A stretch of DNA of 64,000 nucleotides from assembly GCA_025060695.1 (NCBI GenBank), contig JANXBH010000002.1:82996-146995 (forward strand). The letters run 5' to 3'. Position numbers and translations under genes: made by a program. The stretch is from a candidate division WOR-3 bacterium. GTDB taxonomy: Bacteria; Hydrothermota; Hydrothermia; LBFQ01; DSFT01. How positions within the stretch are numbered: position 1 is the first letter of the stretch; each line of letters opens with the position of its first letter. The notes under the pieces were generated by a model that saw only the letters and a list, made by a program, of their open reading frames with translations, was not told the DNA's origin and did not search any database. Below are positions 9,597 to 29,029 of this stretch, piece by piece.

Positions 9597-10998
9597 TTTC
9601 TCCACGTTTTACTTGAAAATAACATAAAAACTTATCATCTTTATTAGGAAAATCTATTCTATAGTGAACTCCCCTACTTTCCTCTCTTCTTAAGGCAAAT
9701 TCAAATATATATTTTATAAGGTTTTCATTCTTTATTTTCTTTAGGGCTCTTTTTAAATTATCTCCATCCCTTATTATGAAACAATATCTATCCAAAAGTT
9801 CTCTTTCCTCGTGTGATACAACATAACTTTCAATATTTTCATTATAGTAAATTTCCCTTAGTTTTACTCTTTTTAACTTTTTTGAAATATCCATAGCACA
9901 TAATTTTGCCATTACCAAACACTCAAGTAAAGAATTACTTGCAAGTCTATTTGCACCATGAATCCTTGTAGAGCTTACTTCACCAATAGTATATAAATTC
10001 TTTATTTCAGTAGTCCCATCCAAATTAGACTTTATGCCACCTATGAAATAGTGTGCGGATGGTTTTATTGGAATTTTATCTTTTGTCAAGTCATATCCGT
10101 AAAATTTCAATAGGTTATATAAATAACTGTATTTTTCTAATATTAGTCCTTTATCAATGTTTCCTGCATACAAATAAACCTTATTTTGTAAAACAATAGC
10201 TCTCGAGACTTTATCTCTTGTCTCTTTCTCATCTATAAATCTTTCACCTTTTTCATTCAATAATATTGCACCATCGCCCCTTATTGCTTCACTTATTAAA
10301 ATTCTTGAATTATCTGGTGCAAAGAATACTGTAGGATGAAATTGTATAAACTCTAAGTTTTCTAAAGTCAATCCACTTTTATATGCTATAAACATTGCAT
10401 CTCCTGTTGCAGTGTAAGGATTAGTTGTTCTTAAATAAAGTCCGGACGCTCCACCTGTTGCCAAAACCACAAATTTTGAATATATTCTAAAAATTTCATT
10501 ATCTCTTTGCAGTATAACTCCATATACCCTATTATTCTTTACTATTAGACCTAAAAGCTTTGTATTTTCCAAAAAGTTTACCTCTTTTAAACTTTGAATA
10601 AGGTAATTTGTTAAATTCTTTCCTGTTTGAATACCTCCAGAATGAATTATTCTTGCGACACTATGTCCACCTTCTATAGATAAGCCAATTTCATCATTAT
10701 CCCTATCAAATGGAGCACCCTCATTTATTAGTTCTAATACCACTTCCTTCCCAACATGAACAAACTTTTTAACTCTTTCTTCATCACAAAGACCATCTCC
10801 TGCCTTAATTGTATCTCTATAGTGAAATTCCAAACTATCTTTACTGCCAATAGCAACTGCAATACCACCCTGTGCCCAATACGAATTACTTAAATTTATG
10901 CTTCCTTTACTAATTACAAGTATATTCTTTGTAAATTTTGACAATTTATAAGCACAGAATAATCCCGAAATACCAGAACCTACTATAACAACATCCAC
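9571..10998 (-). CDS. nadB: L-aspartate oxidase
   Basis: 'VVIVGSGISG', 'AQGGIAVA' and the succinate-DH/fumarate-reductase flavoprotein fold; 475 aa. Confidence 0.85.
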   Translation of the reverse strand: MDVVIVGSGISGLFCAYKLSKFTKNILVISKGSINLSNSYWAQGGIAVAIGSKDSLEFHYRDTIKAGDGLCDEERVKKFVHVGKEVVLELINEGAPFDRDNDEIGLSIEGGHSVARIIHSGGIQTGKNLTNYLIQSLKEVNFLENTKLLGLIVKNNRVYGVILQRDNEIFRIYSKFVVLATGGASGLYLRTTNPYTATGDAMFIAYKSGLTLENLEFIQFHPTVFFAPDNSRILISEAIRGDGAILLNEKGERFIDEKETRDKVSRAIVLQNKVYLYAGNIDKGLILEKYSYLYNLLKFYGYDLTKDKIPIKPSAHYFIGGIKSNLDGTTEIKNLYTIGEVSSTRIHGANRLASNSLLECLVMAKLCAMDISKKLKRVKLREIYYNENIESYVVSHEERELLDRYCFIIRDGDNLKRALKKIKNENLIKYIFEFALRREESRGVHYRIDFPNKDDKFLCYFQVKRGEITLEKKKT

Positions 10999-14800: not shown

Positions 14801-15571
14801 TTACATCCCTGTTTCTTTAAGTGCTACACTACATGGACAGTTTCTTTGAGTTGGAATTTTTTCAATTGCATTAAATAATATTTTTTTTACTTTTTCCAAG
14901 TTTCTATTCATATTCTCAATTACTTCAGTAGTTGTTAATTTTTTCTCCTTAATACCTGCTGCATAGTTAGTAACTACATTTATACCCGCATAACATATTT
15001 CTAATTCTCTACTTAAAATTGCTTCACTTACTAATGTCATACCAACTACATCAGCACCAAGAATTTTTAGCATTCTTATTTCAGCTGGTGTTTCAAGCCT
15101 TGGACCTTGCATTTGCGCGTAAACTCCAAATTCGTAAATCTCAATATTTAAATTCTTAGAACTTTCTAAAATCGCTTCCCTTAATATTGGACAAAATGGT
15201 TCAGAAACATCTATATGAACAACTTTATCATTATAGAATGTATTTATTCTTCCACTTAAATCAATAAAATCTGATGTTAAAACTAAGTCTCCGGGTTTTT
15301 TGGTTATTCCACCAACTGCGGAAATACCAATAATTCTTTCAATATCTAATAATTTAAATCCATATATATTAGCTTTATAGTTAACTTCATGTGGTAAAAA
15401 TGAGTGTTTTCTTCCATGTCTTGGCAGGAAGTATATTTCAAAATTTTTATATCTTGCATGTAGATAACTATCAGATGGACTTCCATATGGAGTAATTAAA
15501 TTGATTTCTTCAATAATCTCAATGTTTTCTATTTTATAAAGACCACTTCCTCCAATTATTCCTATTTTCAT
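14801..15571 (-). CDS. mtnP: S-methyl-5'-thioadenosine phosphorylase
   Basis: 'IGIIGGSGLY' and the PNP/MTAP fold; 256 aa. Confidence 0.8.
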   Translation of the reverse strand: MKIGIIGGSGLYKIENIEIIEEINLITPYGSPSDSYLHARYKNFEIYFLPRHGRKHSFLPHEVNYKANIYGFKLLDIERIIGISAVGGITKKPGDLVLTSDFIDLSGRINTFYNDKVVHIDVSEPFCPILREAILESSKNLNIEIYEFGVYAQMQGPRLETPAEIRMLKILGADVVGMTLVSEAILSRELEICYAGINVVTNYAAGIKEKKLTTTEVIENMNRNLEKVKKILFNAIEKIPTQRNCPCSVALKETGM

Positions 15572-15954
15572 AGTTCTAATTTTCTTTTTAGTTCCTCTTT
15601 ATCCATGAAAACTTGAATTTGATAGCCTTCAGCTATTTTTTTCCCATCTTCATTATATCCTTCTATATCACATATAAATTTATTTCCTTCAACGCTTCTT
15701 AAAATTGCTATAATTTTTACTTTCTTTCCGATTTTTGTGGGTGCTAAGTGTTTAACAAAAATGCTATAGCCTATACCTTCCTCATTTTCTTTTAAGTACT
15801 TTTCAAGCAGTCTTCTTGATGCAAGCTCTGCATGATATACTAAACTCCACGTTGAATATAAATTATGAATAAGTTTTCCTTCGAATTTCGCTTGCATACT
15901 TTCATCAGTTATAACTTCAATTTCATAAGTATCTCCTATTTTATAGTCTTTCAT
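15568..15954 (-). CDS. hotdog-fold thioesterase-like protein
   Basis: size and pattern match a hotdog fold; overlaps neighbours on both sides. Confidence 0.4.
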   Translation of the reverse strand: MKDYKIGDTYEIEVITDESMQAKFEGKLIHNLYSTWSLVYHAELASRRLLEKYLKENEEGIGYSIFVKHLAPTKIGKKVKIIAILRSVEGNKFICDIEGYNEDGKKIAEGYQIQVFMDKEELKRKLEL

Positions 15955-16373
15955 TTTCTTCTTGCAGGTGGTTTTTCCTCGTGGTTCACCAACCAGTCTC
16001 CACTCCTATAGGGTTCATACTCCATGTGCATTGGAAAGTCCTTTCTTAATGGATGACCTTCGTAATCTTCAGGAAGTAGTATTCTTCTTAGGTCTGGGTG
16101 GTCTTGAAATACTATTCCAAACAGGTCATAAACTTCTCTCTCTTGCCAATTTGCTCCATAGAATATATCACTAATTGTAGGTATTTTGGGATTGTCTTTT
16201 GAAACTATGCATTTTATAAACTCTTCAGTATTTTCATTTAAGTTTCTAAAGAGATATATAACTTCAAAATTTTCATTTTTATCCACCGCGGTAATAAATG
16301 AAAGATAGTCAAAACCTTTTTCTTTTAAACTAATAACCTCTTGTCTTATATCCTCCTTTTGCACAACTTTCAT
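15951..16373 (-). CDS. nuoC: NADH-quinone oxidoreductase subunit C (30 kDa / Nqo5) homolog, orphan
   Basis: 'ANWQEREVYDLFGIVFQDHPDLRRILLPEDYEGHPLRKDFP' is the NuoC signature; no other nuo genes adjacent. Confidence 0.7.
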   Translation of the reverse strand: MKVVQKEDIRQEVISLKEKGFDYLSFITAVDKNENFEVIYLFRNLNENTEEFIKCIVSKDNPKIPTISDIFYGANWQEREVYDLFGIVFQDHPDLRRILLPEDYEGHPLRKDFPMHMEYEPYRSGDWLVNHEEKPPARRK

Positions 16374-16378
16374 AGTAC

Positions 16379-17272
16379 TTAAAGTTTAAAGTTATTCCTA
16401 ATATAATTTTTAAAAATTTGTATATCTTCACTAATTACTCTTATACTTCCTGTCTTATGCCTAAATATAAGAGTAAAATTTTTAGCTAAGACATCATCAG
16501 CGAAGTCCATGGCAACTTGCATATTCTTCGAGTTTGAATTTACTATGATTGAAGTGTTTTCCTCATTCATGCTATTTCTTTCTATAAGTATATCTATATC
16601 TTCTTTTTCTTCAAAAAATCTTGAGTGAAATGTTGAAAGACTTTGATTACTAATTGTGATTTTCAAAGTTTTTCCTTTATAGTCTAAGTTTAAATATTCT
16701 ATATTTTTAAGCTTTTCCTCATATATCTTTTCTTCTTCTTCTATTTCCTCTTGTGCTTTCTGGGTTAAACCCTTTGCCATTAATTCCTCATATAATCTTT
16801 CCACAAATTTAGAATAATCCAAATCTTGTGATAGTAAATTCAATATAATCCTTCCAATTTCTTCATTTGGTTCAATTCTCAATATAGTCTTTATTCTCTT
16901 TACGAGTAAACTATCCTTTTTTACTAAACCTTCAGATTCTGCCCTTGGAAAACCAAACCTATCTATAATATCTATTGCATGAAGTGCACTATTATTGATG
17001 TTAATTTCTGGAAAAAATTTTTTTAACACTAAAATAATACTGGAATTTATGTTTAAGTCTTGATGATGGTCAAAATTATTTAAATTAGGGTCATAAGAAT
17101 TCCCAACATCTATGAGTATAATTCCACTGTCGTTTAGATATTCTGATGGAACATTTTGAGGATAAATATATTCTATAGTTGCATCTGGATATAAATACTT
17201 TAAAATAGAAATTGCTAAGAAGTCATCTAAATGACGAGGTGGTAAATGACTAACTATTTTCTTTACTACCAT
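16379..17272 (-). CDS. MYG1/UPF0160 family metal-dependent hydrolase
   Basis: 'DVGNSYDPNLNNFDHHQ' motif. Confidence 0.55.
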   Translation of the reverse strand: MVVKKIVSHLPPRHLDDFLAISILKYLYPDATIEYIYPQNVPSEYLNDSGIILIDVGNSYDPNLNNFDHHQDLNINSSIILVLKKFFPEININNSALHAIDIIDRFGFPRAESEGLVKKDSLLVKRIKTILRIEPNEEIGRIILNLLSQDLDYSKFVERLYEELMAKGLTQKAQEEIEEEEKIYEEKLKNIEYLNLDYKGKTLKITISNQSLSTFHSRFFEEKEDIDILIERNSMNEENTSIIVNSNSKNMQVAMDFADDVLAKNFTLIFRHKTGSIRVISEDIQIFKNYIRNNFKL

Positions 17273-18756
17273 TATAGGAATTTTGTAATTATTTTTAAAT
17301 AATTTTCATATCTCTCTTTGTTTATTTTCCCCATGGAAACCGCTTCTACTATTGAGCATCCCTCTTCCTTGATATGAAAACAATCTCTAAATGCACACTT
17401 GTATTTACTAAACTCCCTAAAGCAATTTCTAACATCCTCCTTTTTCATGATTTCATTTAGTTCTATCTTTGAAAATCCCGGAGTATCTGCTATAAATGTT
17501 TCATTATCAATAGAATATAGTTTTACTTCAGTAGTAGTTTGGGTTCCTCTTTTTAACCTTTTGCTAACTTCACCTATTCTTATATCTACGTTAGCTAAAG
17601 CTTTAATTAGTGAACTCTTACCTACACCACTCGGTCCAGCTAACACTACCAAGTCCCCCCTTATTCTATTTAAAAGTATATCCAAGTTCATATTTTCTTT
17701 TACACTAACCGTAATCACTTCATACCCAGCATCTTTATAAATACTTACATATCTTTCTAATTCTTCATTTGGTGTAATATCTACTTTATTGAAAACTATT
17801 ATACTTGGAATATTTAAAAATTCACACGCACAAAGAATTTTATCTAACTGAATTTGAACAATTTCAGGTTCTCGTATTGTAAACATTAAAATACACTTAG
17901 ATACATTTGCAATAGGTGGTCTTGGTAATAAATTTGTCCTTTCTTTTATTTTTTCAATTACAAAAAACTCACCTTCTCTTTTCCCAACAACTATATCTCC
18001 TACATATATTTTTCTTTCAGATTTTAATAATTTTCCTCTTGGAATAGCCCTAAAGACCTTGCCTTTTGAGATTACACTTAATTTTTGACCCTCTCTTGAA
18101 ATAACAGTTCCTATACATAAGTTCTTTCTAATAATATCAAGTATTTCTTCAATAACTTCATCCTCCCTTAAATTAGTTGTGTCTATTATAAATGCATCAC
18201 GTGAAGGTCTAAGCGGTGATATTTCTCTATTTAAATCTGAAATATCTCTATTTTTTAGAATTTCCAGAATATCCTCATATGATACATTACTTTTATTTAA
18301 CTGCTTATATCTTCTCATTGCCCTTTCTTCTAATTTTGCGGTTATGTAGAACTTATAATCTGCATCTTTCAAAACAACTGTCCCAATATCCCTTCCCTCT
18401 ACTATTGCTCCATCTTTTGAAAGTTCACGTTGAATGTCAATTAAAAAATCTCTAACTTGCTTAAATTTAGAAATTTCAGATGCAAGATTTCCTACTTTTT
18501 CATCCTTAATATTATCAGTTATATCTTCTCCATTCAAGAATGTTCTTGCAGTTTTATTTATAAATTTTTGTTCTATCTTTAGATTTTTTAAAAATTCAAA
18601 ATTATTATAGTTTTGCATCTTATTCTGGATTATATAGTATGCAATCGCTCTGTATAAAGCCCCGGTTTCTACATACTTTATATTTAGAATCTCACTTAGT
18701 TTTTTTGCAATAGAACTTTTTCCCGAACCTGCTGGACCATCAATGGCAATAATCAT
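17272..18756 (-). CDS. cmk-rsgA: fused cytidylate kinase (N-terminal) and ribosome small-subunit-dependent GTPase RsgA (C-terminal)
   Basis: N-terminus 'IAIDGPAGSGKSS' (Cmk, about 210 aa). C-terminus has an OB domain, then permuted GTPase motifs 'VFNKVD', 'GPSGVGKSS' and 'DTPGF', and a Zn finger 'CAFRDCFHIKEEGC' (RsgA). One uninterrupted 494-aa ORF. Confidence 0.8.
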   Translation of the reverse strand: MIIAIDGPAGSGKSSIAKKLSEILNIKYVETGALYRAIAYYIIQNKMQNYNNFEFLKNLKIEQKFINKTARTFLNGEDITDNIKDEKVGNLASEISKFKQVRDFLIDIQRELSKDGAIVEGRDIGTVVLKDADYKFYITAKLEERAMRRYKQLNKSNVSYEDILEILKNRDISDLNREISPLRPSRDAFIIDTTNLREDEVIEEILDIIRKNLCIGTVISREGQKLSVISKGKVFRAIPRGKLLKSERKIYVGDIVVGKREGEFFVIEKIKERTNLLPRPPIANVSKCILMFTIREPEIVQIQLDKILCACEFLNIPSIIVFNKVDITPNEELERYVSIYKDAGYEVITVSVKENMNLDILLNRIRGDLVVLAGPSGVGKSSLIKALANVDIRIGEVSKRLKRGTQTTTEVKLYSIDNETFIADTPGFSKIELNEIMKKEDVRNCFREFSKYKCAFRDCFHIKEEGCSIVEAVSMGKINKERYENYLKIITKFL

Positions 18757-21008
18757 TAGTAGTATGGACCTAAATTAAAGTGAGTTTTAAATTCTTTGTA
18801 CTTTAAACTATATGCAAAATCAAATCCCATAATTCCTACTATCGGAACCTCTATTCTAAAACCTATACCAATTGCATCATAAAGGTTTCTAAAGTCTATA
18901 GTTTTAATTGCCCACCAGCTATTTCCTGTTTCGTAAAATAATGAGATATAAAATTGGTCAGCAGGTCTAATTCTTTCCTCAAATGTAAACCTAAAAAAGT
19001 GCTTTCCTCCAAGAACGCTTGCACCCACCCTTGTCCCGATTGACCTAAAATCATAACCCCTTAAGCCCAATGGTCCTACGTCTCCAAGTGCAAAATATTC
19101 ATATGGTGGAAGATCCTGCTTTGCCAATATTGAAAATATTGAACCCCAGTTTACTCTAAGAAATGATACTAACTTATCTTTGTAATTGGGAATTAGTATA
19201 ATTAGTTCGGGAATAAATTTTATATAATGCAAATTTCCACCAATTGGACCACCTGTAATAGTCCAAGGAAAACTAAATGAATATCCCTTTGAAGAATTAA
19301 ACACTCTGTCTCTTGTATCATAGCTAAAGGTTGTAGTTAGTGAGCTTGATAGAACCCTTGGATTTTTTGTCCAAAAATCATAAAATTGACTTCCTTCATA
19401 TAGTGGACTTATATCATAAACAGAAATGTACTCAAATGTATAGTCAAATTTTATTCTTGAAAATAAATTCCAAAGTCTTCTACCATAACTTATGGAAATC
19501 CCTGTATTTCTTTGATTAAAAGTAAAAAGATATCTATTTAGACTATAAATATTTATACCCACAAGAATAGGTTTTCCTCCGAACCAAGGTTCAGTAAACG
19601 AAATTTGAAAGTTTTGTCTTCTTGCTCCATACTCCGCTAAAAAACCAATAGTCCAGCCTCTTCCAAGAAAATTTGGCTGCTGTAAATTTACATTAAAAAA
19701 TAGTCCATCAAGCTGACTATAACTTGCACCTGCTCCAATTTGACCTGTAGGCTTTTCCTCAACTTTTATCTCTAAATCTACAAGACTAGAATCTTCTAAA
19801 ACTGGCTTAAAGTTTACTCCTATATTTGAAAAGTAGTTTAAATAGTAGAGATTTCTATAAGAAAGTAAGAGCAAGCTTCTATTAAAGTAGTCTCCAGGAA
19901 ATATATAAATTTCTCTTCTAATAATTTCATCCCAAGTTTTAGTATTTCCATATATATTTACAAGTCTAACTTTCACTTTCCAATTTTCCTTAATCTTAAA
20001 CTTCACATTAATTGTACTATCGTTTTTTTCTTCAATAGGTTCAACTTGTGCATATATATACCCGCTATCAGCATATAAACTACTTATATTATTTGAGCTT
20101 TCTAAAACTTTTGCCCTTGAATATAATTTAGAATTATACCAAATACCATAACCTAATCTATATCTAATTGAATTAAAGAAGTTTAGTGGCTTTTTAATAG
20201 TTATCGCATTTTCTAATTGACTATTTTTAAACTTACTGTTTCCTTCAAAATTAATACTACCAAAATAGTATTTTTTACCTTCATTTAGGAAAATTTTTAT
20301 TTTTACAAACTTTTCTTCATATTCAAACTTAAATGAATCCACTTTAAAGTCAGCAAAACCACTATTTTTATAAAAATCTTCTAATGTTATTAAGTCTTTA
20401 TCAAATTTTTCCTGCGAGAAATAGCCTCCCCTTAATATCTTTCTAATAAAATTAACCTCCTTATTTGATAGTAAATTCTTCAAGAGCCTATCAGAAAAAC
20501 TTCTATTTCCGTAAAATTCAATCTTTGATATTCTATACTTTTGTCCTACATTACCAGAGATTATTAATTCTACTTTTGAATTATCTATAAATTTTTCTCT
20601 GATTTCTATCTTTGGATTCACATAACCCTTAGTAATGTAAAATTTTTCTATTAACTTAGAAATTTTATATTTATTGTAATTACTTGCTGGAAGACCTTTA
20701 TAAAATGATATTGAATCTTCAAATTCTTTTGAAACTTTCTTAATTTCCCACTTAAAGCCATTTATTGTAGGATAGTCTGAAACTTTAAATATTAAATCAA
20801 GTGTATCCTTTTTAAACTTACCATATACTTCAAAACTATCCAAGAAACCCTTTTCATATACGTCATATAAATAGTTTCTAAAGAATGGTTCTTGAAATGG
20901 CATATTTTCCTTTAAGAGCAAATTGTAAAGAAAGCTACTTTTTGAACGATATTTTAACCCTTGAACTTCAATTTTCCCTATAAACTGACCTAAAATGATT
21001 ATTAGCAA
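18756..21008 (-). CDS. bamA: outer membrane protein assembly factor BamA (Omp85)
   Basis: 750 aa with POTRA-like repeats and a C-terminal aromatic-rich beta-barrel. Confidence 0.8.
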   Translation of the reverse strand: MLIIILGQFIGKIEVQGLKYRSKSSFLYNLLLKENMPFQEPFFRNYLYDVYEKGFLDSFEVYGKFKKDTLDLIFKVSDYPTINGFKWEIKKVSKEFEDSISFYKGLPASNYNKYKISKLIEKFYITKGYVNPKIEIREKFIDNSKVELIISGNVGQKYRISKIEFYGNRSFSDRLLKNLLSNKEVNFIRKILRGGYFSQEKFDKDLITLEDFYKNSGFADFKVDSFKFEYEEKFVKIKIFLNEGKKYYFGSINFEGNSKFKNSQLENAITIKKPLNFFNSIRYRLGYGIWYNSKLYSRAKVLESSNNISSLYADSGYIYAQVEPIEEKNDSTINVKFKIKENWKVKVRLVNIYGNTKTWDEIIRREIYIFPGDYFNRSLLLLSYRNLYYLNYFSNIGVNFKPVLEDSSLVDLEIKVEEKPTGQIGAGASYSQLDGLFFNVNLQQPNFLGRGWTIGFLAEYGARRQNFQISFTEPWFGGKPILVGINIYSLNRYLFTFNQRNTGISISYGRRLWNLFSRIKFDYTFEYISVYDISPLYEGSQFYDFWTKNPRVLSSSLTTTFSYDTRDRVFNSSKGYSFSFPWTITGGPIGGNLHYIKFIPELIILIPNYKDKLVSFLRVNWGSIFSILAKQDLPPYEYFALGDVGPLGLRGYDFRSIGTRVGASVLGGKHFFRFTFEERIRPADQFYISLFYETGNSWWAIKTIDFRNLYDAIGIGFRIEVPIVGIMGFDFAYSLKYKEFKTHFNLGPYY

Positions 21009-21040: not shown

Positions 21041-21754
21041 TTGAAAAGAAGAGAATTTTTAAAGATTATAGCTATAAGTAGTCTTTTAACCTTAATAAAA
21101 GTAAATACTTTAGAAGCAAAAAAAGGAGGTAAGAAGATGCCATTTACAGAATATAAAGCTAAGAACTATAAGGAAATAAGACCTCAACTTTGGAACATGG
21201 ATGGTATATCTCAAAAGACTATGGACGAACATATAAAACTATACGAAGGGTATGTTTCAAAATACAATGAAGCTATGAAACTCTTAGAAAATCTTAGTGA
21301 TGATGATTATACAAAGGCAAACCCTACTTATTCTACAATCAGAAGTATAAAGGTAGATATTACAAGAGCCATTGGTGGAATAAAAAATCACGAGCTATAT
21401 TTTGAACACTTAGGAGGAAAAGGCGGAAAACCAGAAGGAAAACTTCTTGAACAAATTGAAAAAGACTTTGGTAATTATGAAAGATTTTTAAAAGAATTGA
21501 GAGCTACTGCAATGGCAGCAAGAGGATGGGCATGGGTTTCATATGACCATAACTTTAAAAGGCTATTTATAGCTATAGGTGATGAGCAAAATACTTTTCC
21601 AATTTGGAACTCTACACCTATTTTAGGTATAGATGTATTTGAACATGCATATTTTATAGACTATGGAACTGCAAGGGCAAAGTATTTAGATGCATTCTTT
21701 CAAAATCTTGACTGGAAAGCTGTAGAAAAAAACTTTGAGAGCTTAAAGATATAA
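21041..21754 (+). CDS. sod: Fe/Mn superoxide dismutase with Tat-type signal peptide (alternative cytoplasmic start at about 21137)
   Basis: 'DVFEHAYFIDY' and 'GWAWV' (SOD). The TTG-start extension encodes 'KRREFLKIIAISSLL...LEA', a twin-arginine-like leader. An internal AAGGAGGT plus ATG lies at about 21137. Confidence 0.75.
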   Translation: MKRREFLKIIAISSLLTLIKVNTLEAKKGGKKMPFTEYKAKNYKEIRPQLWNMDGISQKTMDEHIKLYEGYVSKYNEAMKLLENLSDDDYTKANPTYSTIRSIKVDITRAIGGIKNHELYFEHLGGKGGKPEGKLLEQIEKDFGNYERFLKELRATAMAARGWAWVSYDHNFKRLFIAIGDEQNTFPIWNSTPILGIDVFEHAYFIDYGTARAKYLDAFFQNLDWKAVEKNFESLKI

Positions 21755-21758
21755 AAAC

Positions 21759-22106
21759 ATGGCAAAATCAACTAATCATAAATTTGAAGAGAAATTATTA
21801 CTTCAAGAGGTTATAAAAATAGAAACTGAAAAAGCAAGTAAGATTATAGAAGACGCAAATAAAAAAGCACAGGAAATTATAAATAGGGCACACTTGGAAG
21901 CACAAAATATAATAGAGGAAGCTCATAAAGATGCACAACTTGAAGCAAGTTTAATAGTAGAAAAAGCACTTAATGAAATTCAAAAAAAGTCAGAAGAGAT
22001 AAAGAGAAAGGGAATAGAAGAGATAGATTTATTTAAGAAAAAGGCAGAAAGTTCTATAGAAAGAGTTAGGAAATTAGCAATAGACTTAATTCTCGGAAAC
22101 TATTAG
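21759..22106 (+). CDS. coiled-coil hypothetical protein
   Basis: charged heptad-like sequence; first gene of a tightly coupled operon. Confidence 0.3.
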   Translation: MAKSTNHKFEEKLLLQEVIKIETEKASKIIEDANKKAQEIINRAHLEAQNIIEEAHKDAQLEASLIVEKALNEIQKKSEEIKRKGIEEIDLFKKKAESSIERVRKLAIDLILGNY

Positions 22107-23633
22107 ATGATAAGAGGTATTTATATTATTGGGCTTCCGGGTTCACATAGAAAATCTATATCTGAATATTTAAAAAACTGGCTTGATTGGAAAATTATAG
22201 ATTTACAAGAAGAAGTTGAAAGAAAACTTCACAAGACAATAATTGAAGTTATACAAGAAAACAAACTAAAGGAATTTGAAGAAGAACAGGAAAGGTTAAT
22301 GCTTGGCAATATATTTGCAGGTGAAATATTTATTTCCTCTGATATAATACCAAAACCGGAAATTATAGAAAAACTTAAAAATAATGGGATAATACCTATA
22401 TATTTAAGCTACTCCAGACAATCGCTTGAAAGAGAACTTGAAAAAAGTCAAGAACCACATACAATACTTAGAATACATCCATACGAGGATTATGAAAAGG
22501 AAATAGAATTAGCAAGTGAACTTCTAATTAAAGTTCCTACAGAAGGCTTTTCGGACAAAGAAATCGCACTAATGATAGTTAGAAGCCTTAAAGGTGAATA
22601 TGACCTTATTTTTAGCAATAATGATAAAGTATATAGTGGTATCAATTCCTTTCATTATATAGAAGAAATACTTGATTATGAAGGATTTATTAATGCACTA
22701 TTTATTACTTATAAAAGACACTTTCTTATAAACTTTAAGTGGGTATTTGATGTAATAAAAAAGTCAAGTTTTGAACCATATGTATTTTTTATTCCTGAAA
22801 AAGAAGAAATAAAAGAATTAGAATTTGTTAAGAAGATATGGCATGAAATTATAAATTTAAAGATAAGAAAGAATACCGCAATTGTTGGTATGGGTGGGGG
22901 AAGTTGTCTTGACTTGGTAGGATTTTCAGCATCAACATTTAGAAGAGGTTTTCCATTTGTTTCAATTCCAACAACATTTATATCTCAAATAGATGCAAGT
23001 ATTGGTGGGAGAAATTCGCTACACTATATAGGAAATAAAAATATACTTGGGACAATTTACTATCCAAGATTCATTCTAATTGACCCTGTTTTCATATTAA
23101 GCTATGACGATACTAAATTTTTATATTCATTAAGCGATGCGGTTAGATATGGACTTCTTTTTGATGAAAGCATATTAGATTTTCTTGAAAGAGAGGCAAA
23201 TAAGATAAAATTAAAGTACTTACCTACAATTGACAGTCTCGTAAGAAAATGTGCTCTTCATAAGCTAAACGTATCTTATTTAGATCCTTATGGTTGGTCT
23301 CAGCTTAGACCATTAGAATTCGGAAATACAATAGCTTACTTAATACAAGAAACATTACACTTAGACTATCAAAGAGCATTGACAAAAAGCATTTATTTAA
23401 TTTTAAAATTCCTATCAAGTCAAAATATACTAAAAGATAAGAAAATTTTTGAAAAGGTTATAGGTATATTTGATAATTATGGACTAGAATATAAGCTTGA
23501 AAATGGCGATATAGAAAAACTTTACAAAAAGTGCAATTTAGATGAAATTGAGATTTTTGGAATTGAGACTTATAAGTCTCCAATTCCACTAAGAATAAAT
23601 AAAGATGATTTCTTTAGAAGTTTAGAAAGTTGA
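22107..23633 (+). CDS. fusion of a degenerate shikimate-kinase-like domain and a 3-dehydroquinate-synthase-like domain (probable pseudoenzyme)
   Basis: The C-terminal half contains 'GMGGGSCLDLVGFSASTFRRGFPFVSIPTTFISQIDASIGG' (DHQS glycine-rich NAD site), but 'GGRN' replaces GGKT and 'GNTIAY' replaces the metal-binding His motif. The N-terminal 'GLPGSHRKS' is a broken Walker A. Confidence 0.5.
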   Translation: MIRGIYIIGLPGSHRKSISEYLKNWLDWKIIDLQEEVERKLHKTIIEVIQENKLKEFEEEQERLMLGNIFAGEIFISSDIIPKPEIIEKLKNNGIIPIYLSYSRQSLERELEKSQEPHTILRIHPYEDYEKEIELASELLIKVPTEGFSDKEIALMIVRSLKGEYDLIFSNNDKVYSGINSFHYIEEILDYEGFINALFITYKRHFLINFKWVFDVIKKSSFEPYVFFIPEKEEIKELEFVKKIWHEIINLKIRKNTAIVGMGGGSCLDLVGFSASTFRRGFPFVSIPTTFISQIDASIGGRNSLHYIGNKNILGTIYYPRFILIDPVFILSYDDTKFLYSLSDAVRYGLLFDESILDFLEREANKIKLKYLPTIDSLVRKCALHKLNVSYLDPYGWSQLRPLEFGNTIAYLIQETLHLDYQRALTKSIYLILKFLSSQNILKDKKIFEKVIGIFDNYGLEYKLENGDIEKLYKKCNLDEIEIFGIETYKSPIPLRINKDDFFRSLES

Positions 23634-27295: not shown

Positions 27296-29029
27296 GTGGG
27301 GTTCGCTATAGGGACCATTGGTCCCTTTTTACTAAGTATTTCTGACTATTACTATTTTTCAAGAGCATTAAGTCATTATGGATTAAATTTTTCTGACTTA
27401 GGATATTTTAAAGATATTTCTGTTGAAACCAATTTAAAACCCCTTGGCTTTTTAAATTTCCTAAAAAGTCCCTTTAAAATTGATACGTTTGGTTATAAAA
27501 TATTAAGCAATATTCCTATCATAACTCTTGAAACTATTATAAATGAGTATTATGACATTAAGCTAATCGGACCTTATTCCATTGTATTTGATTTGAATGA
27601 TACGCTCTTTAATGAATTTGAAATGAATATTAAATATCATCTTCAAAAAATTTTAAAAACTGCAGAAATATATTCTTTTTACATGGAACACTCAAACATA
27701 ACCTTAGATGAGATTGAAACTTTGTTAAAATTTGCAAAAGAGAATATAATGGAAGATAGTTCTAATATATCGAAAGACAGTGTCGTAAGTTATTTAAAAA
27801 AAATAAATTTTAGGGATTTTTTTTATGCACATTTGACACTATTAAATACATTTCTTGAGCTAAGAGACGTAATAAAGGTATTAAAGGGAAAAAGTATAAA
27901 TTTGGTATATGAAACGCAGTTTGGAAAAGTTATAATTACTGATAGCCTTTTGCCTTCAGACAGCGATTTTATATATATAAATACAAGAGGAAGTCAAAAA
28001 TATAGTAAAATATGCAATAGTAATATTAGAATTTGTGCATTTTTTGACCTTGAGGGAAACGATATTTATAACTTCGATAGTTTTTCTGTTCATACCGAGT
28101 ATGGCTTAGTATTTTTCTATGAAGATGGAGGTGATGATATTTACAAATGTTTAGGATTTTGTCTTTCTTCTTCAATTTTAGGACTTAGTTATTTTGAGGA
28201 TAATAGTGGAAATGACTACTACGATAGTGGCAAGTTTTCAATTTCTGCAAGCTATTATGGAATTTCAGTATTTTTAGATAAAACGGGGGATGATATTTAT
28301 AGGGCTGTAAACTCATCTTTGGGTTTTAGTAGTATATGGGGAATTAGTGTATTTAAGGATGAAAGTGGAAATGATAGTTATTATCTTGGTAGATATTTTG
28401 AACATAAGCCACTTTGGAAAAACGAATATTTTGGCTTAGGTCTTGGTTTCTCCATAGGCATGAGAGAAGATATAGCTGGTGGTATTTCTGTTTTTGTAGA
28501 TTATGATGGAAATGACCTTTACAGCTGTGGGACATATTGTTTAGGCAGTGCATACTGGTATTCAACGGGAATATTTATAGATTTAAAGGGTAATGATAGG
28601 TATATTGGAGTTCAATATGGTATTGGTTCAGGCATTCATATTGGTATAGGTGGTTTTTTTGATTTAGAAGGAAATGATATATATATATTTAGAGCTGGAC
28701 CTTCTATTGGAAGTGCACATGATTTTGGAACGGGTTTTTTTTACGATAAACTTGGAGATGATATTTACTATGTTTCAGGCGGTATTGGAAATAGTATAGC
28801 AAACGGTCTTGGTATATTTATTGATTCTCATGGTAATGATATTTACAATTTTACTGAATTTAACCTAAGTTGCGGTGCAAGTCAAAAGTTAGATAAGCAA
28901 AGAGAATTTCTTGGACTTGGTATATTTATAGATAAAGAAGGTAATGATAGTTATCCAACAGTTTCTAAATGTAAAAATAATTCTACTTGGAAAGTTGGTG
29001 ATATTGGCATTGGTTTTGATGGTTTTTAA
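27296..29029 (+). CDS. tandem-repeat protein with about 11 copies of a 26-28 aa unit (F-x-D-x-x-G-[ND]-D-x-Y ...); true start probably downstream (about 27602 or 27629)
   Basis: the units 'FDLEGNDIY', 'DGGDDIY', 'SGNDYY', 'TGDDIY', 'SGNDSY', 'DGNDLY', 'KGNDRY', 'EGNDIY', 'LGDDIY', 'HGNDIY' and 'EGNDSY' recur at regular spacing; the GTG at 27296 is upstream of a terminator-like hairpin. Confidence 0.5.
   Translation: MGFAIGTIGPFLLSISDYYYFSRALSHYGLNFSDLGYFKDISVETNLKPLGFLNFLKSPFKIDTFGYKILSNIPIITLETIINEYYDIKLIGPYSIVFDLNDTLFNEFEMNIKYHLQKILKTAEIYSFYMEHSNITLDEIETLLKFAKENIMEDSSNISKDSVVSYLKKINFRDFFYAHLTLLNTFLELRDVIKVLKGKSINLVYETQFGKVIITDSLLPSDSDFIYINTRGSQKYSKICNSNIRICAFFDLEGNDIYNFDSFSVHTEYGLVFFYEDGGDDIYKCLGFCLSSSILGLSYFEDNSGNDYYDSGKFSISASYYGISVFLDKTGDDIYRAVNSSLGFSSIWGISVFKDESGNDSYYLGRYFEHKPLWKNEYFGLGLGFSIGMREDIAGGISVFVDYDGNDLYSCGTYCLGSAYWYSTGIFIDLKGNDRYIGVQYGIGSGIHIGIGGFFDLEGNDIYIFRAGPSIGSAHDFGTGFFYDKLGDDIYYVSGGIGNSIANGLGIFIDSHGNDIYNFTEFNLSCGASQKLDKQREFLGLGIFIDKEGNDSYPTVSKCKNNSTWKVGDIGIGFDGF
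27311..27330 (+). terminator. putative Rho-independent terminator (GGGACC-ATT-GGTCCC followed by TTTTT)
   Basis: perfect 6-bp stem, 3-nt loop and T5 tract, 68 nt after the 26920..27243 stop; it lies inside the longest-ORF version of the next gene. Confidence 0.5.

Follow-up and report, generated by a model that had tools for sequence, protein, structure and literature searches.

A single open reading frame (ORF) of a candidate division WOR-3 bacterium encodes a complete cytidylate kinase (Cmk) followed, with no linker, by a complete ribosome-assembly GTPase RsgA. The DNA analysed here, which we call the window, is a stretch of 64,000 nucleotides (nt) of contig JANXBH010000002.1 (assembly GCA_025060695.1, positions 82,996 to 146,995 of the forward strand), and the cmk::rsgA gene occupies 17272..18756 of its minus strand, where it runs from an ATG start through 494 codons to a TAA stop at 17272-17274, with no stop inside. 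An earlier note on this DNA, made from the letters alone, had described a continuous 494-residue ORF with a complete Cmk and then a complete RsgA; both statements hold, since the frame is uninterrupted and each half is full length and scores above the curated NCBIfam cut-off of its family. The exact protein is present at NCBI under three accessions (MCS7244799.1, MCX7947331.1 and MDW8150113.1), with the label "(d)CMP kinase [candidate division WOR-3 bacterium]". The architecture is conserved among relatives, both halves are under purifying selection and retain the functional residues examined, and the distribution is narrow. We infer that both enzyme activities are kept and that they are independent of each other, and we consider it likely that this genuine, maintained fusion produces one bifunctional polypeptide in which the two modules keep the ordinary activities of the separate enzymes.

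Two complete enzymes in one polypeptide

The Cmk domain covers residues 1-212 (18121..18756, minus strand, as are all the parts of the gene given below). The Pfam family Cytidylate_kin (PF02224) matches residues 3-210 over profile positions 1-210 of 211 (E = 6e-68), and the cmk equivalog model TIGR00017 gives 218.8 bits against a cut-off of 135.55, over profile positions 3-215 of 217. When compared by Foldseek with the structures in the PDB, this half superimposes on the solved Cmk structures 2h92, 2cmk and 3r20 with template modelling (TM) scores of 0.87-0.88; weak matches to Fap7-Rps14 in the same database were discarded, as they reflect the generic fold of nucleoside monophosphate kinases. 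The P-loop GPAGSGKS, read from the sequence at residues 7-14 (18715..18738), is kept across the orthologues, position 10 being either G or A. Moreover, residues S36, Y40, R41, R110, R131, D132, D185 and R188 of E. coli Cmk, which bind cytidine monophosphate (CMP), correspond here to T31, Y35, R36, R102, R122, D123, D174 and R177, and these eight equivalents are invariant in 12 out of 12 orthologues. The roles that the CMP-binding residues play in Cmk of E. coli and Yersinia have been reported, and the R110A, R131A and R188A mutants of the Yersinia Cmk are inactive (PMC3603445). By the family tests, the Cmk half of the window protein is a canonical bacterial CMP/dCMP kinase, and it would be expected to have the corresponding phosphotransferase activity.

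The RsgA half contains the OB domain, the permuted G4-G1-G3 motif order and the C-terminal zinc finger that the earlier note had recognised. The OB-fold domain spans approximately residues 213-283 (17908..18120), where the structure model shows β-strands, and aligns with the N-terminal domain of the solved structures 2yv5, 1u0l and 1t9h, from chain residue 3 in the case of 2yv5; the alignment with the NCBIfam model of E. coli-type RsgA (PRK12288) starts at residue 214. The circularly permuted GTPase domain follows at approximately residues 284-435 (17452..17907), with Pfam RsgA_GTPase (PF03193) matching residues 270-433 (E = 3e-48) and the motifs in the order G4 NKVD (323-326; 17779-17790), G1 GPSGVGKS (374-381; 17614-17637) and G3 DTPG (424-427; 17476-17487). 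The C-terminal zinc-finger domain comprises residues 436-494 (17275..17451), with the zinc ligands C454, C459, H461 and C467 at 17356-17397, and the RsgA equivalog model TIGR00157, which gives 214.6 bits against a cut-off of 100 over profile positions 3-246 of 247, reaches residue 490. In a set of 54 sequences, made of the 12 fusion orthologues and 42 stand-alone RsgAs, the four zinc ligands are invariant, as are N323, K324, G374, S376-S381, D424, P426 and G427. The motifs quoted in the note were all found at the protein level, namely IAIDGPAGSGKSS at residues 3-15, NKVD at 323-326, GPSGVGKSS at 374-382, DTPGF at 424-428 and CAFRDCFHIKEEGC at 454-467. The half as a whole superimposes on whole solved RsgA structures with TM scores of 0.82-0.87 (Foldseek, PDB). 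Judging from these sequence features, it would act as a GTPase stimulated by the 30S subunit and would bind the decoding centre.

The junction has no linker

The two halves meet at residues 211-215 (K-N-L-C-I; 18112..18126), as indicated by the alignments, the codons and an AlphaFold2 model; this lies inside the interval of about 18100-18150 in which the earlier note had suggested re-inspecting the reads for a frameshift or stop between the two genes. In the PDB alignments, the Cmk structures cover query residues 1-210 and residues 3-291 of Aquifex YjeQ (2yv5) cover query residues 210-493, residue 3 of YjeQ being aligned with query residue 210; no PDB chain spans both halves. Since the Cmk alignments stop and the RsgA alignments start at 210-214, the end of a complete Cmk and the start of a complete RsgA coincide at this point.

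The AlphaFold2 model, built on 54 sequences with 12 rows only spanning both domains, reached a predicted local distance difference test (pLDDT) value of 88 and a predicted TM score (pTM) of 0.83. In this model the last Cmk helix (198-210) passes directly into the first OB strand (213-222) with pLDDT of 94-96, and the sole disordered stretch is 393-408, where switch I of the GTPase is expected. A model obtained from the fusion-only alignment was poor (pLDDT 64, pTM 0.55). The length of the linker is identical, that is zero, in 12/12 orthologues, with identities down to 65%.

Conservation, selection and distribution of the fusion

The note had proposed to search related genomes for the same fusion, and we found it in 12 protein clusters (at 90% identity) from NCBI, ENA, JGI and Logan assemblies, and in nine DNA loci. 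Besides the cluster of the window protein there are 11 others, which are 65-87% identical to it, 493-500 amino acids long and aligned over 99-100% of the length; the alignment of the 12 orthologues has a mean column identity of 83% and no indel near the junction. The nine DNA loci represent seven distinct sequences, in all of which the frame is open, with no internal stop, and synonymous changes are found across the junction. Further fusion loci are L002, a GTDB species representative, and the metagenome contigs L018, L019 and L087, the last of which is truncated.

The ratios of non-synonymous to synonymous substitution rates (dN/dS, Nei-Gojobori) of the Cmk and RsgA halves were 0.080 and 0.077 for the window against L098, 0.111 and 0.130 for L001 against L018, and 0.162 and 0.195 for L100 against L103; these figures come from unsaturated pairs, the more distant ones being saturated at synonymous sites. 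Thus, both halves are under purifying selection of similar strength (dN/dS 0.08-0.20).

The chance that an error in sequencing or assembly created a false read-through between two neighbouring genes is practically negligible. Against such an artefact stand the identical protein in three NCBI accessions, the independent assemblies from four data sources, the indel-free junction, the seven DNA sequences open in the same frame with synonymous divergence across it, and a guanine plus cytosine (GC) content that is uniform over the junction and the gene (0.28-0.31). Neither an artefactual read-through nor relatives with split genes and a stop at the junction, which the note had named as findings that would speak against a fusion, were encountered.

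To evaluate the distribution, 1.84 billion representative proteins at 50% identity were searched exhaustively with phmmer. The search returned one full-length fusion match (P0012, query 1-491) and one junction-spanning fragment of 172 amino acids (P0136), confirmed by Pfam, and the remaining top matches cover a single half each. As the single-half matches would be outscored by a diverged fusion, whichever the order of its domains, the architecture is restricted to one narrow clade. Cluster members carry the label candidate division WOR-3 or Candidatus Hydrothermia; the NCBI taxonomy places WOR-3 in the phylum Caldifarciminota.

The earlier note had stated that this arrangement was not known to be described. 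Searches of the accessible literature returned no description of a Cmk-RsgA fusion, and two recent papers on WOR-3 genomics make no mention of it; on the other hand, one automated IMG annotation reads "cytidylate kinase/ribosome small subunit-dependent GTPase A", and a close precedent exists in Cmk-Der. Most IMG entries are named "ribosome biogenesis GTPase" only. As long as the protein is not annotated as bifunctional, such single-half names in NCBI and IMG mean that one of its functions will be counted as absent in gene-content surveys of WOR-3/Hydrothermia genomes.

Gene neighbourhood and possible origin of the fusion

Upstream of cmk::rsgA lies bamA (Omp85/POTRA by Pfam; 18756..21008, minus strand), whose TAA stop overlaps the ATG of the fusion gene by 1 nt (TAATG, 18754-18758). 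Downstream, the ATG of a MYG1-like gene (16379..17272, minus strand) overlaps the TAA stop of the fusion gene, again by 1 nt (TAATG, 17270-17274). bamA is directly upstream of the fusion in every orthologous locus and the downstream genes vary, the MYG1-like neighbour being conserved only in the closest relative (L099). In locus L001, on the contig of P0007, two IS1-family copies (InsA zinc ribbon and DDE_Tnp_IS1) are found at 331-1058 and 10050-10777; they flank bamA-cmk::rsgA at about 7 kb on the upstream side and 0.6 kb on the downstream side, and replace the downstream synteny of the window.

Six packed genes are found at 14801-21008 of the minus strand, in the order bamA, cmk::rsgA, the MYG1-like gene, a NuoC-like gene, a FlK-like thioesterase and a PNP/MTAP-like phosphorylase. 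Start and stop overlap by 1-4 nt at four of the five junctions, and the junction between the MYG1-like and NuoC-like genes is a 5-nt gap; in a compact genome with 30% GC, this packing suggests translational coupling. The NuoC-like ORF (Complex1_30kDa, 140 amino acids, 15951-16373, minus strand), which lies between the MYG1-like and thioesterase genes, has no adjacent nuo genes, and the same arrangement was observed in L099.

It had been premised in the note that cmk normally sits beside rpsA, and this proved correct, as an S1/rpsA-like gene is located within 3 kb downstream in 44 of the 57 background cmk loci. No S1 gene was found in the fusion loci, nor anywhere in the 64-kb window.

The fusion would have a single origin, in a narrow AT-rich WOR-3 (Candidatus Hydrothermia) lineage. 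As for the event itself, we may speculate, from the sequences at the gene borders, on the loss of 2 nt from a TAATG overlap of stop and start, by which ...AAT TAATG AAA ATT GGA would have become AAT TTG AAA ATT GGA; the idea comes from the junction of L103, which has exactly that sequence, and from the two borders of the gene, both of which are TAATG overlaps.

Possible functions of the fused protein

In the arrangement that we favour, with two autonomous modules, the Cmk module would catalyse the ATP-dependent phosphorylation of CMP/dCMP, and the RsgA module would hydrolyse GTP upon stimulation by the 30S subunit during the late maturation of the decoding centre. By analogy with CMK-EngA of Bifidobacterium, the fusion would mainly enforce the co-expression of the two enzymes at a 1:1 ratio. 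In the fusion lineage, cmk has lost the neighbourhood of rpsA, and the fused gene is directly 3' of bamA, in a tightly packed string in which it is probably translationally coupled. The autonomy of the modules is suggested by the CMK-EngA precedent, in which both activities are kept and are largely independent. Moreover, the many different partners to which Cmk is fused fit an opportunistic joining of neighbouring genes.

Several points weigh against this reading. The pre-fusion state, with adjacent and separate cmk and rsgA, was not recovered in the loci examined: in none of about 88 background cmk loci was rsgA found near cmk (tblastn with the RsgA half as the query), the closest stand-alone rsgA genes (P0039 and P0040) have no cmk neighbour, and in the sister lineages defined by BamA (L104, L105 and L106, with BamA 57%, 45% and 42% identical and GC of 44-57% versus 30% here) bamA is followed by neither cmk nor rsgA. 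The search for a second copy of cmk or rsgA, in which none was found, covered the 64-kb window only. Furthermore, the linker has an invariant length of zero, versus 50 amino acids in CMK-EngA, and Cmk is placed at the N-terminus of the OB domain, from where E. coli RsgA extends into the cleft of the decoding centre between helices h18 and h44, so that the independence of the modules is not guaranteed. The truncated gene that follows bamA in L105 is unrelated.

It is conceivable, though in our judgement unlikely, that the two halves are functionally coupled, with the rigidly attached Cmk riding onto the 30S subunit together with RsgA. Cmk might then be a bulky stand-in for the N-terminal extension, a plug of the A site or of the shoulder, or a sensor of the nucleotide state, or else binding to the 30S subunit might gate the CMP kinase; coupling in either direction would tie the supply of pyrimidine nucleotides to the maturation of the small subunit. 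The zero-length linker, constant across orthologues down to 65% identity, and the high pLDDT predicted across the junction are in favour of such a coupling. In E. coli RsgA bound to the 30S subunit, the segment of chain ahead of the OB domain heads for the A site, passing over h18 and then between this helix and h44, and competes with a uS12 loop, and the OB domain is the anchoring one (PMC5499641); a folded domain of about 24 kDa at the N-terminus of the OB domain, with no linker, would therefore have to travel with RsgA to that face of the 30S subunit on which the decoding centre lies. The repeated links between Cmk and the ribosome, namely the cmk-rpsA loci, the Cmk-S1 fusion P0194 and the Cmk-Der family, point in the same direction. 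On the other hand, in CMK-EngA, the only characterised analogue, kinase and GTPase show the same kinetics whether the domains are fused or isolated; Cmk is also fused to unrelated partners (PlsC, cupin, MiaA, GT9, HI0933), hence a fusion alone is no proof of coupling; and any relative orientation of the domains is tentative, as the fusion-only alignment gave a poor model. The note had written that a covalent protein would link a nucleotide kinase to a 30S maturation factor, and the physical linkage is indeed present, the functional one being a proposal only. More doubtful still is that Cmk has been co-opted into a checkpoint of 30S assembly, docking on the interface side of the immature subunit near the A site, h18 and uS12. 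In such a case Cmk may replace the extension found at the N-terminus of other RsgAs, or RsgA or the CMP kinase may respond to the CMP/cytidine diphosphate (CDP) or ATP state; if this were true, the co-opted Cmk, taken together with Cmk-Der, Cmk-S1 and the cmk-rpsA operon, would suggest that Cmk has a general physical role at the ribosome, so far unrecognised.

We regard as very improbable that the gene yields two separate proteins, by internal initiation at the junction or by proteolytic cleavage. Codon 213, which aligns with the N-terminal start of stand-alone RsgA, is TTG, a possible start, in the two orthologues L103 and L018; in the window, however, it is TTA, and the reading frame contains neither ATG, GTG nor TTG from codon 186 up to codon 290, so that a separate RsgA could not be made by internal initiation here. 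The first later in-frame start, M291, would remove the OB domain, no internal start is conserved among the orthologues, and the junction is predicted to be structured rather than a flexible, cleavable linker. The genes of the window are generally devoid of Shine-Dalgarno motifs, so that such motifs tell neither for nor against internal initiation. It is scarcely credible, moreover, that one half is a degenerate passenger, be it Cmk as a structural appendage or an inactive RsgA, with the functional copy elsewhere in the genome: the extent of the search for second copies, confined to the 64 kb in which none was found, leaves some room for it, but dN/dS is equally low in the two halves, no variation is seen at any of the catalytic or ligand residues examined, and both halves exceed the equivalog cut-offs. 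A maintained bifunctional protein with two autonomous modules is therefore the reading that we retain as probable. The protein is also a natural experiment, in which a folded 24-kDa domain is placed on the N-terminus of RsgA; in the E. coli protein it is this part that is threaded into the decoding centre.

Other features of the window

A second gene that looks like a fusion involving a P-loop kinase, of AroK-AroB type, was noticed 3.4 kb from cmk::rsgA. It is an ORF of 508 amino acids (22107-23633, plus strand) with a weak match to shikimate kinase (PF01202, residues 17-118, 22.9 bits versus a gathering score of 22.1) and a match to 3-dehydroquinate synthase (228-479), and the same gene is present in L098. 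Between it and a superoxide dismutase gene lies a conserved ORF of 115 amino acids (21759-22106, plus strand), with sub-threshold matches of coiled-coil type only (ATP-synt_B and V-ATPase G). The Fe/Mn superoxide dismutase ORF (21041-21754, plus strand) has 237 amino acids when read from a TTG, its homologue in L098 has 205, and the Sod_Fe_N match begins at residue 56; the listed start probably lies too far upstream. An ORF of 577 amino acids (27296-29029, plus strand) had no Pfam match at E ≤ 0.01. Searches for Rfam families at gathering score found none in the 64 kb, with no tRNA, rRNA or riboswitch matches.

Comparison with known systems

Cmk is an enzyme that fuses readily, as documented by PanC-Cmk (NF010004), AroA-Cmk (NF008816), Cmk-PlsC, MiaA-Cmk and Cmk-Cmk, in which the partners are unrelated and Cmk is C-terminal in several cases. 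The window protein matches the first two models over the Cmk region only (202.7 bits versus 524 for NF010004 and 153.9 versus 943 for NF008816). Among the representative proteins searched we observed Cmk-Cmk, Cmk-PlsC, Cmk-cupin, MiaA-Cmk, Cmk-S1, Cmk-GT9 and HI0933-Cmk fusions; the tandem Cmk-Cmk is a large family of about 453 amino acids and the fusion with the PlsC acyltransferase forms three clusters. P0194 (799 amino acids), from another organism, is a Cmk-S1 protein, RpsA-like with several S1 domains, and P0185, P0139 and P0122 are listed with it as other Cmk-fusion proteins (Cmk-S1, MiaA-Cmk, Cmk-PlsC, Cmk-Cmk).

Compared with stand-alone RsgA/YjeQ/YloQ (Aquifex aeolicus 2yv5; E. coli 5NO2, 5UZ4 and 7BOI), the RsgA half has the same three domains, the same G4-G1-G3 order and the same zinc ligands, with 41% identity and a TM score of 0.82 to 2yv5. 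The difference is at the N-terminus, as stand-alone RsgA starts at the OB fold or with a short unstructured extension (residues 1-33 in E. coli), whereas in the fusion the OB fold is preceded by a folded domain of about 24 kDa. With the stand-alone Cmk encoded beside rpsA, and with Cmk-S1, the window protein shares the enzyme family and the association with the small subunit; the fusion clade, however, has no S1 gene near cmk, and the partner is an assembly GTPase instead of a ribosomal protein.

The closest parallel is CMK-EngA (Cmk-Der) of Bifidobacterium and some Actinobacteria, a bifunctional protein (NF007071; Suresh, Prakash & Kulkarni 2022, PMC9791819) that keeps both activities with kinetics essentially unchanged between fused and isolated domains; in Mycobacterium, cmk and engA adjoin (PMC9791819). 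In both systems an N-terminal Cmk is joined to a ribosome-assembly GTPase in one polypeptide, the distribution is restricted to a lineage and the kinase residues are conserved. The partner in CMK-EngA is the 50S factor Der/EngA, with tandem G domains and a KH domain, and here it is the 30S factor RsgA, with the OB fold, the circularly permuted GTPase and the zinc finger; a linker of 50 amino acids is present there and none here, and pre-fusion adjacency is known there (Mycobacterium) but was not found here. The NF007071 model matches the window protein in the Cmk part only (profile positions 6-227 of 706; 151.9 bits versus a cut-off of 953), and by this sequence comparison the protein is an analogue of Cmk-Der and not a member of its family. 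The Cmk-RsgA fusion thus adds a third independent physical connection of Cmk with ribosome biogenesis to the two given by the cmk-rpsA operon with the Cmk-S1 fusions and by Cmk-Der, and slightly strengthens the case that the long-noted association of Cmk with the ribosome is not accidental.

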